Shown here piece by piece: positions 26,103 to 33,839 of a stretch of DNA of 64,000 nt (positions within the stretch are counted from its first letter, which is position 1; each line of letters begins with the position of its first letter). The DNA comes from an uncultured Chloroflexia bacterium (GTDB lineage Bacteria; Chloroflexota; Dehalococcoidia; DSTF01; JALHUB01). The stretch lies in assembly GCA_963703345.1 (NCBI GenBank), contig OY969814.1, forward strand, positions 1,120,001 to 1,184,000, read 5' to 3'. Below the pieces are notes generated by a model that did not search any database, was not told where the DNA came from, and saw only the letters and a program-made list of their open reading frames with translations. Made by a program: the position numbers and the translations under genes.

Positions 26103-26855
26103 ATGATCTGGAAGATCGGTCTACCACTGCTTCTCGTCGCCGGACTGGTCGGCCTGGCCTACTACTGGGCCATCTCGCCGTCGTCGCAGGTCTACGGATC
26201 GATAACGACGCACGGACCGCGCCAGGAGAAGCTGGTCGCCCTTACGTTCGACGACGGCCCGAATCCGCCCTGGACGAACCAGATCGCCGACGTGCTGGCG
26301 CAGTACGACGTCAAAGCGACCTTCTTCGTCGTCGGCGCCAACGCGGATGCCGCGCCCGACATCGTGCGGACGCTCGTGCAGGAGGGACATCTCGTGGGTA
26401 ACCACTCGTACGAGCACCGCAAGCGCGACGCGCTCCTCGAGCCGCGCTATGGCGAGCTGTCGAAGGCCGAAGCGAGCATCGCCAAGGCGGCGGGCGTTTG
26501 TCCGGCGCTGTTCCGTCCGCCGAACGGCTTCCACACGCCCTGGCAATTGCACGAGGTCGCGTCGGAAGGGATGCGCGCGGTCGATTGGGACGTGCAGCCC
26601 TCCGACTGGGAGGACCCGACGCCGGAGACCATCGTGAAGCGCGTCCTCGACGGCGTCAAGCCAGGCTCCATCATCCTCCTGCACGACGGCAGCGACGCGA
26701 ACCAGGGCGTCGACCGCTCGGCGACTCTCAACGCCCTGCCCGGCATCATCCAGGGGCTCCGCGACGAAGGCTACCGCTTCGTCCGCCTTGACGAGCTCCT
26801 TTCCGTCCAGCCCTATCTCTCCCAGTGTCCACAAGCGGAGGTGAGCACCCCATGA
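26103..26855 (+). CDS. polysaccharide deacetylase (CE4/NodB)
   Basis: TFDDGP, NHSYEH, FRPP, DW, LLHD and an N-terminal TM anchor. Confidence 0.93.
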   Translation: MIWKIGLPLLLVAGLVGLAYYWAISPSSQVYGSITTHGPRQEKLVALTFDDGPNPPWTNQIADVLAQYDVKATFFVVGANADAAPDIVRTLVQEGHLVGNHSYEHRKRDALLEPRYGELSKAEASIAKAAGVCPALFRPPNGFHTPWQLHEVASEGMRAVDWDVQPSDWEDPTPETIVKRVLDGVKPGSIILLHDGSDANQGVDRSATLNALPGIIQGLRDEGYRFVRLDELLSVQPYLSQCPQAEVSTP

Positions 26856-27823
26856 ACCGAAGACAACTAAGTCGCGAGCAGCAAAGCGTTCTGGTCACAG
26901 GCGGCGCCGGCTTCATCGGCTCCCATATCGCCGCCGCTCTCCTCATGTCCGGCCGCCGCGTCGAGGTGTTGGACAACCTGAGTGTCGGCAATCCGGGCCG
27001 CGTCCCGGCCGGCGCGCGCTTCCACCTTGGCGACGTGCGCTCGGAGTCGGACCTGCGACGCGTCTTCGGCCGCAAGCAGTTCGACGCGGTGGTCCATTGC
27101 GCCGCCCAGACCAGCGTAGAGCGCTCCATGAAGGACCCGCAGTTGGACAGGGAGATAAACGCTCTCGGTACGAAGCGCCTGGCGAGCATAGCCGAGGCGT
27201 CGGGTGTGAAGCGCTTCATTTTCGCTTCATCCGGCGGCGCCATCTATGGCGAGTCCGACGTTGCGGCGACGGAAGAGACGCCACCGGCGCCGCGCAGCTT
27301 CTACGGACGCCACAAGCAGGAGGCCGAGCGTCTTCTCCTGTCCGGCCGCATCCCGAGCGCCGTCCTGCGCCTGTCTAACGTCTACGGGCCGGGCCAGCGC
27401 TCCGACGCGGAGGGCGGCGTCGTCGCCATCTTCCTCGAGCGACTTGCCGCCGGCGCGCCTCTGGACTTGCATGGCGGCGGCAGCCAGGTGCGCGACTTCG
27501 TGCACGTCTCCGACGTCGTGAAGGCGGCCCTGCTGTCGCTGGAGGACGGCCTGACCGGCGTCTGGAACGTCGCTAGCGGCCAGGCGACGAGCGTCCTCGG
27601 TCTCGTGGACGACCTTGCCGCCCTGACGGGTCGGGCGGTGAGCCTGCGCCACCTGCCGCGTCGCGCCGGCGACGTCGATTGCTCCCTGATCGCCCCGGGC
27701 AAGCTTCAGTCGACCGGCTGGGGCCCGCCGCTGCCGCTCGCCGAGGGGCTTCGCCTGATGCTGGCCGATTCCGGCGTCGCTGTCGGGACCGAAGTGAGCA
27801 GCACGACCCTCCAGCCTGCATAG
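26852..27823 (+). CDS. NAD-dependent epimerase (GalE-like)
   Basis: TGGAGFIGSH, SSGGAIYG, YGRHK, NVYGP, RDFVHVSD. Confidence 0.9.
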   Translation: MNRRQLSREQQSVLVTGGAGFIGSHIAAALLMSGRRVEVLDNLSVGNPGRVPAGARFHLGDVRSESDLRRVFGRKQFDAVVHCAAQTSVERSMKDPQLDREINALGTKRLASIAEASGVKRFIFASSGGAIYGESDVAATEETPPAPRSFYGRHKQEAERLLLSGRIPSAVLRLSNVYGPGQRSDAEGGVVAIFLERLAAGAPLDLHGGGSQVRDFVHVSDVVKAALLSLEDGLTGVWNVASGQATSVLGLVDDLAALTGRAVSLRHLPRRAGDVDCSLIAPGKLQSTGWGPPLPLAEGLRLMLADSGVAVGTEVSSTTLQPA

Positions 27824-27856
27824 CCTCCGCTCTGACTGCAGGCGCGGCCTTCCAGC

Positions 27857-27885
27857 TTGAAAGGCGGGACGGCCCATGCTAACAT
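27857..27885 (+). promoter_or_regulatory. sigma70-type promoter, copy 1 (upstream of interrupted tRNA-Ser)
   Basis: TTGAAA-17 bp-TAACAT with extended -10 TG. Duplicated at 28412-28440. Confidence 0.7.
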
Positions 27886-27894
27886 CGACCTCGC

Positions 27895-28010
27895 GGAGGG
27901 ATCGCATAGTGGTCTAGTGCGGCCGCCTGCTAAGCGGTTACCCTGGGAAACTGGGGTCATGGGTTCCCGCCTAGGCGGGCCCGTCCGGGCGAATCCCATT
28001 CCGCCCTGCC
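27895..28010 (+). pseudogene. tRNA-Ser(GCT) copy with a 24-nt insertion in the T-loop and a degenerate 3' acceptor strand
   Basis: Identical to 28450-28520 up to GGGTT, then CCCGCCTAGGCGGG+CCCGTCCGGG (27966-27989), then CGAATCCCATTCCGCCC. No TCCCTCCGCCA end. Confidence 0.85.
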
Positions 28011-28033
28011 GTATCCGACGAGGAGAGTTCCTC

Positions 28034-28294
28034 TTGTTCTACGTCTATGTGGTTCGGAGCGAGAAGGATGGCCGCCTGTACACGGGAATGACTTCCGATC
28101 TCCCACGACGACTTAATGAACATAATAGAGGCACGACTACCTCGCTTCGCGGACGTCGGCCCGTCAGACTTGTGTACAGTGAAGAATACGCCACCAGGTC
28201 TGAGGCTTTGGCAAGGGAACATTATTTCAAGACACCGGAAGGTGGAGTGCTGAAACAGCGGTTGGTCTCCGCGGTGGAAGAAGAAGACCGCTAA
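28034..28294 (+). CDS. stand-alone GIY-YIG nuclease, copy 1 (86 aa)
   Basis: FYVYVVRS...LYTG.T.DL.RRL.EHN.G...LVYSE......A..RE..FK. TTG start with AGGAGA RBS. Confidence 0.9.
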   Translation: MFYVYVVRSEKDGRLYTGMTSDLPRRLNEHNRGTTTSLRGRRPVRLVYSEEYATRSEALAREHYFKTPEGGVLKQRLVSAVEEEDR

Positions 28295-28301
28295 AACGTG
28301 G

Positions 28302-28351
28302 CCACGGGTTACCGTCTGGGCCCCCTCCGCGCAAATCCCATTCCCTCCGCC
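28302..28351 (+). repeat. degenerate tRNA-Ser 3' fragment with T-loop insertion
   Basis: CACGGGTT-ACCGTCTGGG-CCCCCTCCGCG-CAAATCCCATTCCCTCCGCC. Confidence 0.75.
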
Positions 28352-28411
28352 CGTGCTACCCTCGCAGGCCGCCTACCCTCCATCCCTGACCGGGAGCCGC
28401 ACTTCTCCAGC

Positions 28412-28440
28412 TTGAAAGGCGCGCGGCCCCATGCTAACAT
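28412..28440 (+). promoter_or_regulatory. sigma70-type promoter, copy 2 (intact tRNA-Ser)
   Basis: TTGAAA-17 bp-TAACAT with extended -10 TG, 9 bp before the tRNA. Confidence 0.75.
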
Positions 28441-28449
28441 CGACTTCGC

Positions 28450-28541
28450 GGAGGGATCGCATAGTGGTCTAGTGCGGCCGCCTGCTAAGCGGTTACCCTG
28501 GGAAACTGGGGTCATGGGTTCGAATCCCATTCCCTCCGCCA
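28450..28541 (+). tRNA. tRNA-Ser(GCT), intact
   Basis: GGAGGGA/TCCCTCC acceptor stem, G73, CCA end, anticodon loop CT-GCT-AA, long variable arm, ATGGG-TTCGAAT-CCCAT T-arm. Confidence 0.95.
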
Positions 28542-28553
28542 GCCGGTCACTAA

Positions 28554-28620
28554 TGGGAAACTGGGGGTCGTGGGTTCCCGCCTTGGTGGGCCCGTCTGGG
28601 CGAATCCCATTCCGCATGCC
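28554..28620 (+). repeat. tRNA-Ser 3' fragment (part of variable arm plus T-arm) with 24-nt T-loop insertion
   Basis: TGGGAAACTGGGGGTCGTGGGTT-CCCGCCTTGGTGGG-CCCGTCTGGG-CGAATCCCATTCCGCATGCC. Confidence 0.85.
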
Positions 28621-28644
28621 GCACTCAGGCGGCGGCGGCCCTTT

Positions 28645-28908
28645 GTGTTCTATGTCTACGTCGTTCGGAGTGTGAAGGACGGTCGCCTGTATACCGGAAC
28701 GACAGGTGACCTTCGGCGGGGGCTTAATGAACACAATCGAGGCAAGACCAGCTCGCTTCGTGGAAGGCGGCCTGTAAAGCTGGTGTATAGTGAAGAGTAC
28801 CTAACCAGGGCTGAGGCTCTGGCCCGAGAACGCTACTTCAAGACGCCGGAAGGCGGAGTGGTGAAGAAGCGGCTGGTCTCGGAGGTGGAAAAGAGCGACT
28901 GCGATTGA
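28645..28908 (+). CDS. stand-alone GIY-YIG nuclease, copy 2 (87 aa; conserved Arg replaced by Gly)
   Basis: 17 differences over 86 aa relative to copy 1 by manual count. GTG start, weak RBS. Confidence 0.85.
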   Translation: MFYVYVVRSVKDGRLYTGTTGDLRRGLNEHNRGKTSSLRGRRPVKLVYSEEYLTRAEALARERYFKTPEGGVVKKRLVSEVEKSDCD

Positions 28909-28913
28909 ACGTA

Positions 28914-28968
28914 GTCATGGGTTCCCGCCTTGGCGGGCCCGTCTGGGCGAATCCCATTCCCTCCGCCA
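28914..28968 (+). repeat. tRNA-Ser 3' fragment with 24-nt T-loop insertion and intact CCA end
   Basis: GTCATGGGTT-CCCGCCTTGGCGGG-CCCGTCTGGG-CGAATCCCATTCCCTCCGCCA. Confidence 0.88.
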
Positions 28969-28983
28969 GCAACTCGGACTGAC

Positions 28984-29007
28984 GCCCCTTTCCGGGGCTA
29001 TCTTTTT
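28984..29007 (+). terminator. possible intrinsic terminator after the tRNA/GIY-YIG array
   Basis: GCCCC-TTTCC-GGGGC followed by TATCTTTTT. Confidence 0.45.
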
Positions 29008-29019
29008 CGGGAATTCGGA

Positions 29020-30303
29020 ATGCGCTACCACATCTGGACGTTCGGCTGCCAGATGAACAAGGCCGACTCCGCGAAGCTCGCCGCCGGCCTCGAACGCCTG
29101 GGCCACGAGGTCGCAGCTTCGCCTGAGGAGGCGGACCTGCTCGTCGTCAACACCTGCGCCGTACGCGAGCACGCCGAGCAGCGCGCGGCGGGCAGGCTCG
29201 CCGAGGCGAAGCGACTGAAGGCGAAGAACGCCGCGGTCAAGATCGTCCTCACCGGCTGCATGGTCGGGCCGCAACTCGACGAACTGCGACGTCGCTTCCC
29301 CTACGTTGACGCCTTCGCGGCGCCGCAGGCCTTCGCCGATATCGCCTCCGGAATCGAGGGTCTGCCGGAGGGCTGCGCGCCGTCGCAGTTCTGGGCCGGC
29401 GTTTTCCCTCTTGCCGGCGGACCCACCGCCTTCGTGCCCGTTGTTTACGGTTGCAACAAATTCTGCTCGTACTGCATCGTCCCCTATCGCCGCGGGCGCG
29501 AGCGCAGCCGGACTGTGGAGGAAGTCCACGCCGAAGTGCGGCATCACGTTGAAGGCGACGTCAGGGAGGTGACGCTGCTGGGGCAGTCGGTAGAGGCGTT
29601 CGGCCGCGACCTGCCGGATCGGGGGGACCTCGCCGACCTCATGCGCGACCTCCACGCCGTCGAAGGGCTGGAACGCATCCGATTCCTCACCTCCTATCCG
29701 ACCGACGTCACGGAGCGCATCGTCGACGCCGTCGCTGACCTGCCGAAGGTCTGCGAATGCTTTAGCCTCCCGCTCCAGGCAGGCGACGACGCGGTCCTCG
29801 CCCGCATGCGGCGAGGCTACACCGCTGACGAGTACGAGGCGGTCGTCGCGGGCATACGAGGGCGCATTCCGGGAGCAGCCATCTCCACCGACGTCATCGT
29901 CGGCTTCTGCGGCGAGAGCGACTCCCAGTTCCAGCGCACGTACGATCTGCTGGAGCGCTTGCGCTTCGATAAGGTGCACGTCGCGGCCTACTCGCCGCGG
30001 CCCGGCACCATCGCCGCGCGTCGCCTGGAAGACGACGTGCCCGCCGTGACGAAGCAGGCGCGGCTCCAGGCCGTCGAGGCGTTGCAGAAGCGCATCGCCG
30101 GCGAGATCAACGCCGCGCTCGTTGGCCGGACAGAGGAGGTGCTCGTAGAGGCGAAGGCGAAGGGTCGCTGGAGCGGCCGGACACGCAGCGACAAGCTGGT
30201 GCACTTCAGCGGCGACTACCGGCCCGGCGACCTCGTGCCGGTGCGCATCGAGAGGGCCGGTCCGTGGTCGCTGTCCGGCGCCGTCCCTTCGGGAGAGAGC
30301 TGA
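29020..30303 (+). CDS. miaB: tRNA-2-methylthio-N6-dimethylallyladenosine synthase
   Basis: TFGCQMN, NTCAVRE, GCNKFCSYCIVP, STDVIVGFCGE and a C-terminal TRAM domain. Confidence 0.92.
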   Translation: MRYHIWTFGCQMNKADSAKLAAGLERLGHEVAASPEEADLLVVNTCAVREHAEQRAAGRLAEAKRLKAKNAAVKIVLTGCMVGPQLDELRRRFPYVDAFAAPQAFADIASGIEGLPEGCAPSQFWAGVFPLAGGPTAFVPVVYGCNKFCSYCIVPYRRGRERSRTVEEVHAEVRHHVEGDVREVTLLGQSVEAFGRDLPDRGDLADLMRDLHAVEGLERIRFLTSYPTDVTERIVDAVADLPKVCECFSLPLQAGDDAVLARMRRGYTADEYEAVVAGIRGRIPGAAISTDVIVGFCGESDSQFQRTYDLLERLRFDKVHVAAYSPRPGTIAARRLEDDVPAVTKQARLQAVEALQKRIAGEINAALVGRTEEVLVEAKAKGRWSGRTRSDKLVHFSGDYRPGDLVPVRIERAGPWSLSGAVPSGES

Positions 30304-32533: not shown

Positions 32534-33700
32534 TTAGGCTCCACGGGCGGCCACCACCGCTTTTTGCGCCGCTTCGCCGAGTCCCTGCGCGCGGATGAGC
32601 CCGTGACCTTCTGCCGCCAGAATCCGCTCGCCGTCCTCGACGTTCGTGCCCGCCAGCCGCACGACGACCGGCACGCCGATCTTCATCTGCTTCTGCGCGT
32701 CGACGACGCCCTGGGCGATGACGTCCACACGCGCCATGCCCCCGAAGATGTTAATAAGAATGGCCTTGACGTTGGCGTTCGTGGTGAGGATCTTGAACGC
32801 GTTCACCACTCGCGCCACGTCGTTCACGGTGCCGATATCGAGGAAGTTCGCCGGCTCCCCGCCCGCCAGCTTGATCGCGTCCATCGTCGACATCGCCAGG
32901 CCGGCGCCGTTCACGACGCAGCCGATATTGCCAGTGAGCTTGACATAATTGTTGACGCCCAGCTCCTGCGCCTGCACCTCCAGCGGGTCTTCTTCGTCGA
33001 GGTCGCGCAATTCGGCGATCTCCGGATGGCGGAACAGGGCGTTGTCATCAAAGTTCAGCTTGGCGTCGAGGGGGAGGACGCGTCGGTCAGCGGTGACGGC
33101 GAGCGGGTTGATCTCCGCCAGAGAGCAGTCGCAGGCGACAAACGCCTTGTAGAGGCCGGACATGAGCGCGATCGACGGTCGGAGGAGGTCGCCGGCCAGT
33201 CCGAGGGCGAAGGCGAGGCGACGCGCCTGGAACGGCTGCAAACCAATTGCTGGGTCGACGTGCACCCGTTGGATGAGCTGCGGCGAGCTTGCCGCGACCT
33301 CTTCGATCTCCATGCCGCCGGCCGAGCTCGCCATGACGACCGGGCTGGCGGCGGCGTTGTCGACGATGACGCTCAGGTAAAGCTCGCGCTCCGGCTTCAA
33401 CTGCTCTTCGACTAGGACGCTTCGCACCAGGCGGCCCTCGGGCCCCGTCTGCGGCGTCACCAGCGTCATGCCGATGATCCGCGCTGCGGCCTCCTCCGCC
33501 TGTTGCGGCGTGTCGGCCAGGGCGATGCCGCCGCCTTTGCCGCGCCCGCCGGCGTGCACCTGCGCCTTGATGACGACGGGCGCCGCCAGCTCCTCGGCGA
33601 TTCGTCGCGCCTCGGCGGGTGTCGTGGCTACGCTGCCGCGTGGCACCGAGACGCCGAAGTTAGCGAGGACGCGCTTTGCTTGGTACTCGTGGACCTTCAT
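32534..33700 (-). CDS. sucC: succinate--CoA ligase beta subunit
   Basis: HEYQAK, KAQVHAGGRGKGGG, EINPL, NGAGLAM, INIFGG. Confidence 0.96.
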   Translation of the reverse strand: MKVHEYQAKRVLANFGVSVPRGSVATTPAEARRIAEELAAPVVIKAQVHAGGRGKGGGIALADTPQQAEEAAARIIGMTLVTPQTGPEGRLVRSVLVEEQLKPERELYLSVIVDNAAASPVVMASSAGGMEIEEVAASSPQLIQRVHVDPAIGLQPFQARRLAFALGLAGDLLRPSIALMSGLYKAFVACDCSLAEINPLAVTADRRVLPLDAKLNFDDNALFRHPEIAELRDLDEEDPLEVQAQELGVNNYVKLTGNIGCVVNGAGLAMSTMDAIKLAGGEPANFLDIGTVNDVARVVNAFKILTTNANVKAILINIFGGMARVDVIAQGVVDAQKQMKIGVPVVVRLAGTNVEDGERILAAEGHGLIRAQGLGEAAQKAVVAARGA

Positions 33701-33750
33701 CTGCTGACCCGATCCCTGGTCAGAGCGCGAATTCCGTTTCGAGGGCCGGA

Positions 33751-33839
33751 TGGCGGAGGGGGAGGGATTCGAACCCCCGTCGGGACAAGCCCGAAGCGGT
33801 TTTCAAGACCGCCGCCTTAAGCCGCTCGGCCACCCCTCC
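33751..33839 (-). tRNA. tRNA-Ser(TGA)
   Basis: Reverse complement GGAGGGGTGGCCGAGCGG...GCGGT-CT-TGA-AA-ACCGC...GGTTCGAATCC...CTCCGCCA. Confidence 0.95.

Follow-up and report, generated by a model that had tools for sequence, protein, structure and literature searches.

The array of tRNA-Ser(GCT) copies and small GIY-YIG nuclease genes found in the window (the whole 64,000-nucleotide stretch of DNA that was analysed) is real, varies among relatives and is under selection. It is likely to represent a selfish system made of a small nuclease and a hairpin, without a transposase. We think it somewhat probable that this system is a pair anchored at tRNA genes, in which a single-domain GIY-YIG gene accompanies a 22-bp twin hairpin and the nuclease cuts single-stranded or extruded DNA beside that hairpin. 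That a GIY-YIG protein of 86 residues is itself the mobiliser of a 22-bp hairpin, without transposase or recombinase and with its own hairpin in each nuclease subclade, is a tentative proposal, to which we give rather less than even chances.

The array, its alleles and its relatives

All parts of the array share the same strand and are enclosed by the tRNA promoter and the terminator (Table 1), and every part that the preliminary description had listed was found in its place. The genome of the window (G000) is a single contig of 2.28 Mb and is 96% complete; its close relatives are labelled Chloroflexota/Dehalococcoidia.

Table 1. Features of the tRNA-Ser(GCT)/GIY-YIG array and its flanks (window positions)
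Feature	Position	Strand	Remarks
NAD-dependent epimerase gene (flank, outside the element)	26852..27823	+	
Sigma-70-like promoter in front of the interrupted first tRNA copy	27857..27885	+	TTGAAA-17-TAACAT, 9/12; within the 116-nt duplication
Interrupted tRNA-Ser(GCT) copy covering tRNA positions 1-84, with a truncated acceptor stem; upstream-type unit A begins here	27895..28002	+	
Hairpin insert 1, 24 nt, abutting the T-loop CG	27966..27989	+	CCCGCC-N2-GGCGGG then CCCGTCCGGG module
Small hairpin covering a GAGGAG ribosome-binding-like motif, directly 5' of the GIY1 TTG start	28020..28033	+	
GIY-YIG nuclease gene 1 (GIY1), 86 aa, TTG start	28034..28294	+	
Degenerate 3' tRNA fragment	28300..28351	+	21-nt degenerate insert at 28311-28331
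Duplicated promoter of the intact tRNA	28412..28440	+	
Intact tRNA-Ser(GCT)	28450..28541	+	Sole full-length match to the gene in the genome
3' tRNA fragment; start of downstream-type unit B	28554..28613	+	24-nt insert at 28577-28600
GIY-YIG nuclease gene 2 (GIY2), 87 aa, GTG start	28645..28908	+	
3' tRNA fragment ending in CCA	28914..28968	+	24-nt insert at 28924-28947
Intrinsic-terminator-like hairpin closing the tRNA transcription unit	28984..29008	+	Hairpin at 28984-28998; a like hairpin lies directly 3' of the tRNA in empty alleles
miaB-type gene (UPF0004, radical SAM, TRAM) (flank, outside the element)	29020..30303	+	

All four inserts sit in the T-loop at GGGTT^C, three of them being 24 nt long and the fourth a degenerate 21 nt. 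The earlier claim that every copy is interrupted at the same T-loop position therefore holds for the position, but the first copy is also truncated in its acceptor stem and the insert of the second fragment is degenerate. Because the end of the acceptor stem is gone as well, removal of the insert would not restore the first tRNA copy. The promoter duplication spans 116 nt, with copies that are 96% identical, and the only promoter-like sites in the array are those of the tRNA, in keeping with the suggestion that the element uses the tRNA promoter. No integrase or transposase was found among the nine flanking ORFs that were scanned (22.7-33.7 kb), as the preliminary description had also noted, and within the array there is no uninterrupted attR-type copy of the tRNA 3' end, each partial copy being interrupted.

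Contigs from other assemblies agree with this arrangement. Those of run X1, which may be the source sample, correspond to 28169-28398 and 28446-29127 with 0 differences, and a contig from another study (X2), with 20 differences, covers 28008-28549 and so connects GIY1 with the second promoter and the intact tRNA. Both units are covered by independent contigs, with the whole array spanned by no single one of them; together with the same layouts in relatives, these contigs rule out a misassembly.

Of 18 family genomes, 15 have a full-length match to tRNA-Ser(GCT), and miaB adjoins it in 13 of the 15. The locus in 13 related genomes carries 0, 1 or 2 nuclease genes and 0-4 interrupted fragments, so that the empty alleles and copy-number variation that had been anticipated are present. 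It is empty in six (G004, G005, G010, G011, G013 and G017), holds one or two interrupted fragments without a nuclease gene in three (G001, G002 and G003), has one nuclease gene in another three (downstream of the tRNA in G007 and G009, upstream and truncated in G008) and has two nuclease genes in G000. Two further genomes, G006 and G016, are empty at tRNA-Ser(GCT) and lack the miaB link.

Two layouts recur. In layout A, a promoter and a plugged tRNA are followed by the nuclease gene, a promoter and the intact tRNA (G008, L129, and G190 at tRNA-Ser(CGA)); in layout B, the tRNA is followed by the gene and a plugged 3' fragment (G007, G009 and L132). L132 contains a near-identical tandem repeat of 419 bp, and repeats of 334 bp (G011) and 376 bp (G006) occur at other loci. 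Gain, loss and tandem repeats among the relatives bear out the idea of an integrase-free unit that expands in tandem at a tRNA gene.

The two nuclease proteins of the window are 80% identical over 85 aa, close to the first estimate of about 80%. A Nei-Gojobori script applied to 79 codons gave a dS of 1.29, a dN of 0.10 and a dN/dS of 0.08 between GIY1 and GIY2, which indicates that both genes are under purifying selection. The nearest relative of GIY1 is the A-type gene of L129 (dS 0.30) and that of GIY2 is the B-type gene of L130 (dS 0.32). Since each gene is closer to genes in the same position elsewhere, the array of the window combines two alleles, one of type A and one of type B, which meet at a single tRNA. 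A local gene duplication is ruled out by the same values (dS of about 0.3 to genes elsewhere versus 1.29 between GIY1 and GIY2); from the earlier proposal of an old duplication under selection, we retain the selection and drop the local duplication.

The nuclease clade and its hairpins

GIY1 and GIY2 match the Pfam GIY-YIG family (PF01541) with E values of 3e-16 and 2e-13, above the cut-off, and share the conserved residues YVY, YTG, R26, H30 and E62. The predicted model (pLDDT 94) consists of one domain plus a C-terminal helix and is nearest to UPF0213, Slx1 and HIGLE, with I-TevI and UvrC ranking behind; the nearest solved sequences or folds are 1ywl, 1zg2, 6sei and 7wme. By Pfam match, conserved columns and fold, the protein is a member of the GIY-YIG superfamily. 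The Slx1 structure entries are titled as branched-DNA nucleases. NCBIfam assigns no family to the nuclease, and the ESM Atlas matches are to generic GIY-YIG clusters only. SegB, a nuclease to which we return below, is modular and has a separate DNA-binding domain; no such domain is present in the predicted model, which is that of a bare domain of 86 aa. From the ribosome-binding-like motif covered by a hairpin, a weak translation of GIY1 would be expected.

We collected 197 homologous genes with their flanks, of which 169 were full-length and 152 remained at 90% identity, a sample that is biased to relatives of the query. A quick tree places GIY1 and GIY2 in a clade of 87 (SH-aLRT 99), in which 63 of the 87 genes have a same-strand tRNA within 300 nt, versus 2 of 65 outside the clade; the homologs are thus enriched beside tRNA genes, as had been predicted. 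A tRNA on the opposite strand never lies within 300 nt of the nuclease genes. Among the 24 clade members without a near tRNA, 12 are inverted-repeat units and most others are second tandem genes or lie at a contig end. The inverted-repeat arrangement characterises one nuclease subclade, in which the gene lies between the repeats as in an insertion sequence. Eight later hits from a sample of 401 genomes of the phylum are all within 230 nt of a tRNA, and in 7 of the 8 a hairpin-plugged fragment is obvious by eye.

The closest subclade to the window genes is marked by a C-terminal KTPEGG (31 rows, support 99). It is rare, being found only in G000 in the 401-genome phylum sample and only in G000 and G190 in a 201-genome class sample. 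The insert of this subclade is built on the module CCCGTMYGGG and is usually a 22-mer in which two 10-nt halves are joined by CG; in the window inserts, the left 14 nt look as though they have been replaced by the hairpin type of another subclade. The module flanks 28 of the 31 KTPEGG genes, 2 of 56 other clade members, 1 of 65 genes outside the clade and 0 of 32 distal control windows, counts for which the hairpin patterns were chosen by eye on the same loci and in which relatives are not independent. Other nuclease subclades have other hairpins in their flanks. A third nuclease gene of the window's genome is located at tRNA-Asn.

The hairpin type tracks the nuclease subclade, although the type of tRNA and the position of insertion vary. 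In tRNAs for Ser, Ala and Ile, KTPEGG inserts are found in the T-loop, the anticodon loop or the D-loop, or stand in place of the anticodon arm; the Ala and Ile loci are metagenomic. This range of positions rules out a model restricted to the T-loop, and the T-arm specificity that the preliminary description had proposed has to be abandoned. So does its view of the tRNA repeat as the defining end of the element, given that what is conserved and specific to the subclade is the hairpin, found in protein genes on its own as well.

The search for a vehicle between cells gave no candidate. The viral contigs searched held no relative of the KTPEGG subclade and no match to a 26-nt hairpin pattern. 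Matches to the nuclease in phage records reach at most 51% identity and none is labelled SegB, and those in plasmid records are distant (below 60%); neither phage nor plasmid was found as a carrier.

The solo hairpin in host genomes

The 22-mer is dispersed, with 25 sites in G009, 21 in G037, 9 in G158, 6 in G040 and 3 solo sites in G000, versus 0-4 per genome for the control. We inspected 81 non-redundant matches, among them 22 of the 25 in G009 and 19 of the 21 in G037, a set that includes some chance matches with one mismatch. CG is present on both sides of 62 of the 81 sites (chance about 0.017). The left half of these 62 pairs as CCC/GGG in 26, as GCC/GGC in 26 and as GGC/GCC in 9, and is unpaired in 1; this covariation (61/62) is what is predicted for a hairpin in single-stranded DNA. 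By eye, T-loops account for 7 of the 81 sites, and about 7 lie within another hairpin.

Filled and empty alleles were seen in protein genes. The glutamyl-tRNA synthetase gene carries a clean in-frame insertion of 24 nt in G000, G003, G007 and G008 that is absent in G002 and G005 (six genomes compared), and the hairpin is found alone and in frame in about ten other proteins. Outside G000 there are 60 CG-flanked sites, of which 20 are without a homolog in G000, 13 are not spanned and 27 are spanned by one. Ten of the 27 are proteins with an exact gap of 8 residues in the G000 homolog (five of them at an identity of at least 55%); the others comprise one tRNA, four insertions common to G000 and a poorly aligned remainder. 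Inserts in coding DNA occur in either orientation and with the CG duplication. The element is, then, a dispersed palindrome with target duplication and filled and empty alleles, as are miniature inverted-repeat elements (MITEs) and Rickettsia palindromic elements (RPEs).

Beyond CG, the target shows only weak symmetry: of 12 positions tested, position 3 alone stood out (p 0.006). Empty targets, when rebuilt, fold slightly better than re-paired flanks (-4.6 versus -4.0 kcal/mol; 0/200), a result to which we give no weight because T-arm and nested-hairpin sites are over-represented in the set.

Hairpins are not confined to proteins and tRNAs. Two stems of RNase P RNA differ between relatives in hairpins of a second type, and related hairpins are present in that RNA and in a T-box leader; Rfam, applied to 20 hairpin loci, returned tRNAs only. 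One might ask whether the system works at the level of RNA, the plugged fragments being small RNAs, decoys or guides and the nuclease acting on or with RNA, for instance in phage defence. Such a function would suit these RNA locations, as well as the CCA end of the last fragment, the placement of all parts on the same strand from tRNA promoter to terminator, and the fact that tRNAs within 300 nt are never on the opposite strand. However, the plugged copies fold as RNA no better than shuffled sequences (z -0.39 and -0.30), insertion into coding DNA, in both orientations and with the CG duplicated, is a signature of events in DNA, and SsnA, a GIY-YIG nuclease of Neisseria meningitidis, shows no interaction with RNA (PMC11893778). 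We regard an RNA-level function as very improbable.

T-loops are a recurrent target (7/81 sites), which also fits recognition of tRNA in the manner of SegB. By that account, the intact T-loop is what is cut, the insert only destroys the site, as an immunity mark or a repair scar, and the cassette is copied by gene conversion. All four window inserts do lie inside the GGTTCRANTCC motif recognised by SegB (PMC2330249), and repair of a break with the intact tRNA and the final fragment as partners would explain layout B and tandem growth of the kind seen in the L132 repeat. It would not explain why the locus keeps an intact, uninterrupted tRNA or why inserts of the same subclade lie at several other tRNA positions, and a mark of immunity need not hold one sequence, covary as a hairpin or enter protein genes. 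Considering also the bare domain and the low identity of the phage matches, homing of this kind seems unlikely to us.

All five genomes with a KTPEGG gene carry the 22-mer. The main evidence against the nuclease as mobiliser comes from G037 (260 contigs, 90% complete) and G158 (90 contigs, 89%), hairpin-rich drafts that are without a small GIY-YIG and have only a UvrC-sized match. In G040, G025, G014, G011 and G016 the hairpin is present and only other GIY-YIG types were detected. Because of these seven genomes, hairpin and nuclease do not correspond one to one. Both hairpin-rich drafts are fragmented; loci with repeated tRNAs are often missing from such assemblies, and insertions of long standing may persist after the gene has been lost.

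The same two drafts, and the insert-bearing fragments without a nuclease gene in G001, G002 and G003, would be expected if another mover, a transposase or the replication and recombination of the host, were at work and the nuclease were a passenger or an Slx1-like resolver of hairpins and cruciforms in the service of the host. A host role would also agree with the fold, nearest to Slx1 and UPF0213, and with the strong purifying selection. However, the nuclease is patchy in presence and varies in copy number, unlike a repair gene, and the hairpin type switches with the nuclease subclade. A Y1 or RAYT transposase was sought with PF01797, which has no match in G000; there is no Y1 in G037 either, and at the Y1 genes of G158 and G190 no hairpin clusters were found. 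RAYT is therefore unsupported as mobiliser of the hairpin, and we consider another mover unlikely. The Y1 gene of G009 has nested hairpins about 250 nt and about 550 nt from its ends.

Proposed mechanism and known systems

In the mechanism that we favour, the nuclease gene would be co-transcribed from the tRNA promoter and probably translated weakly. The nuclease would recognise its own hairpin, by analogy with Ssn and its repeat, bind it in single-stranded or extruded DNA and cut next to it. A break beside tRNA-like sequence may then lead to homologous recombination with the intact tRNA gene of a sister chromosome or of incoming DNA, in which a crossover 3' of the insert would produce layout B and a crossover 5' of it layout A. 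Only products keeping one intact tRNA would survive, and unequal crossovers would build tandem arrays. The weakest step is the movement of the hairpin alone, for which the same nuclease would have to make staggered cuts with 2-nt CG overhangs that are sealed by host ligase; such cuts would give the 24-nt (22+2) in-frame insertion. To our knowledge GIY-YIG domains have no joining activity, and so insertion of the hairpin would need host enzymes.

If the nuclease proves to move the 22-mer, this would be a new kind of mobile DNA, a transposon of 22 bp and far smaller than the Rickettsia elements of about 150 bp. It would provide a testable answer to an old question, namely by what agent palindromic repeats of very small size enter the genes of proteins and RNAs. 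Host genes would be changed directly, with insertions that give glutamyl-tRNA synthetase and other essential proteins and enzymes 8-residue loops and that remodel the stems of leader RNA and RNase P RNA, the latter stems being variable. The nuclease gene itself would find shelter in the transcription units of tRNAs or, for one subclade, inside a pair of inverted repeats. A large uncharacterised branch annotated as 'GIY-YIG family protein' would gain a role, along with a predicted substrate that is legible in the DNA beside each gene, and very small nucleases that differ in their hairpin specificity would stand as a set alongside Ssn.

No description of the arrangement of nuclease, hairpin and tRNA was found in the literature, in a search that covered few subscription papers and only main texts on Ssn, in whose supplements some of these proteins may be listed. 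Slx1, HIGLE and UPF0213 (YazA/YhbQ-type) are conserved cellular proteins that are not known to have flanking repeats, and the UPF0213-like rows of our tree fall outside the tRNA clade, with a tRNA beside 2 of 29. 'cd10449 SLX1-like' is presumably a label in use, and no paper was found under that term. Elements that target tRNA genes by means of an integrase differ in having one, as none is present among the nine flanking ORFs, and in their uninterrupted attR. For the REP/BIME repeats and their RAYT partners (IS200/IS605-type Y1), the comparison draws in part on general background. Those repeats are likewise small, often doubled single-strand hairpins that occur genome-wide and are linked to one nuclease gene (PMC11893778), whereas the partner here is a GIY-YIG and not an HUH/Y1 protein, G000 is without PF01797 and the copies are often intragenic. 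With RPEs and prokaryotic MITEs the element has in common that it is a palindromic non-coding insertion, found in frame in unrelated housekeeping genes (PMC10969869). Unlike the RPEs (about 150 bp), it has only 22 bp plus a 2-bp duplication and no room for separate terminal repeats (PMC10969869), and it is tied to a GIY-YIG gene rather than to a known transposase.

GIY-YIG nucleases are modular in build (PMC11893778). SegB of phages T4 and T6 is, like the window genes, a free-standing GIY-YIG gene among tRNA genes, and the T-loop and tandem amplification are common to both. It recognises a T-loop motif and leaves 2-nt 3' overhangs (PMC2330249), cutting within a 27-bp site of double-stranded DNA, for the most part close to the CCA end (PMC2330249, PMC13096335), and it drives the tandem amplification of tRNA and nuclease gene by recombination (PMC13096335). 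Unlike this phage enzyme, the protein studied here is a chromosomal bare domain of 86 aa, and the available text on SegB describes neither a hairpin insert nor broken tRNA copies (PMC2330249, PMC13096335).

Ssn (SsnA of Neisseria meningitidis, cd10448) cuts single-stranded DNA beside its hairpin (PMC11893778), and its authors likened the repeat-gene-repeat unit to an insertion sequence (PMC11893778). Its NTS repeat lies inside genes in 2% of cases (PMC11893778). As here, a single-domain GIY-YIG gene of about 90 aa (86 and 87 in the window) is flanked by its own short, genome-dispersed hairpin (PMC11893778), and hairpin and protein co-vary between lineages (PMC11893778). The genes of the window differ in forming a separate, well-supported clade in the quick tree, where the Ssn-like clade was identified by its SRM-like flanks; such motifs flank 18 of 36 Ssn-like genes versus 2 of 87 in the tRNA clade. 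None of the 36 Ssn-like genes is beside a tRNA, the word 'tRNA' is absent from the main text of PMC11893778, and the hairpin of the present system, a 22-bp twin with a duplicated CG, often lies in frame in genes. The system described here is therefore set apart from Ssn by its clade and its repeat, yet no other known system comes as close to it in its way of working as Ssn does with the NTS/SRM repeats.

Nuclease genes at tRNA genes and away from them

A third small GIY-YIG gene of the genome that holds the window (G000) lies 22 nt beyond a tRNA-Asn(GTT) gene. Upstream of this gene are three 103-nt repeats of the 5' part of tRNA-Asn(GTT) and downstream is one fragment of the same tRNA, and all of these carry a TCCGCC-N3-GGCGGA hairpin, placed in the anticodon arm. 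The nuclease cassettes decay, since A-type genes (those between a plugged and an intact tRNA, each tRNA with its promoter) are broken in two related genomes, by an internal stop in G190 (L210, contig C18) and by a shortened C-terminus in G008 (L072).

Some subclades of the nuclease clade sit away from tRNAs, as units of about 290 bp bounded by the inverted repeats CCCGTTAGAGA...TCTCTAACGGG or CCCCTGTGGAATA...TATTCCACGGGG. The insertion sites of these units are mutually unrelated, some of the units interrupt genes, and no transposase is present inside the unit.

Features of G000 and inverted-repeat nuclease units
Feature	Location or loci	Strand	Remark
Third small GIY-YIG gene (L243)	G000:C1:1810200-1811500	minus	46% identical
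Further solo 22-mer copy	G000:C1:313242-313263		
Further solo 22-mer copy	G000:C1:805795-805816		in frame within gene
Inverted-repeat nuclease units	L177, L178, L180, L182, L185, L186, L188, L189, L190; L172, L175, L183		
RNase P RNA with hairpins	G000:C1:1654300-1655000 (L231); also L256-L260		
Orphan tRNA-Pro(GGG) 3'-half copies	G000:C1:1028820, 1034522, 1040818, 1096408		n=4

Hairpins in structured RNAs and solo copies

Two stems of RNase P RNA bear hairpins of the TCCGCC-N3-GGCGGA type, single or double, and these differ between the genomes (six of the genus compared). Hairpins of these types were also found in or beside a T-box leader (L232), a c-di-AMP riboswitch (L233) and the terminator that follows tRNA-Ser in the relative G002 (L102). 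The solo 22-mer copy that lies in frame is common to G000 and G004.

tRNA copies and fragments

Where tRNA-Ser(TGA) adjoins sucC, two relatives, G017 (L286) and G158 (L271), have a plugged tRNA copy but no nuclease gene with it, and in G017 this copy is preceded by a short duplicate of the beginning of sucC. In the window itself, tRNA-Ser(TGA) is without such an insert (compared region 32534-33839). The orphan tRNA-Pro(GGG) 3' halves of G000 resemble the attachment-site scars of integrative elements.
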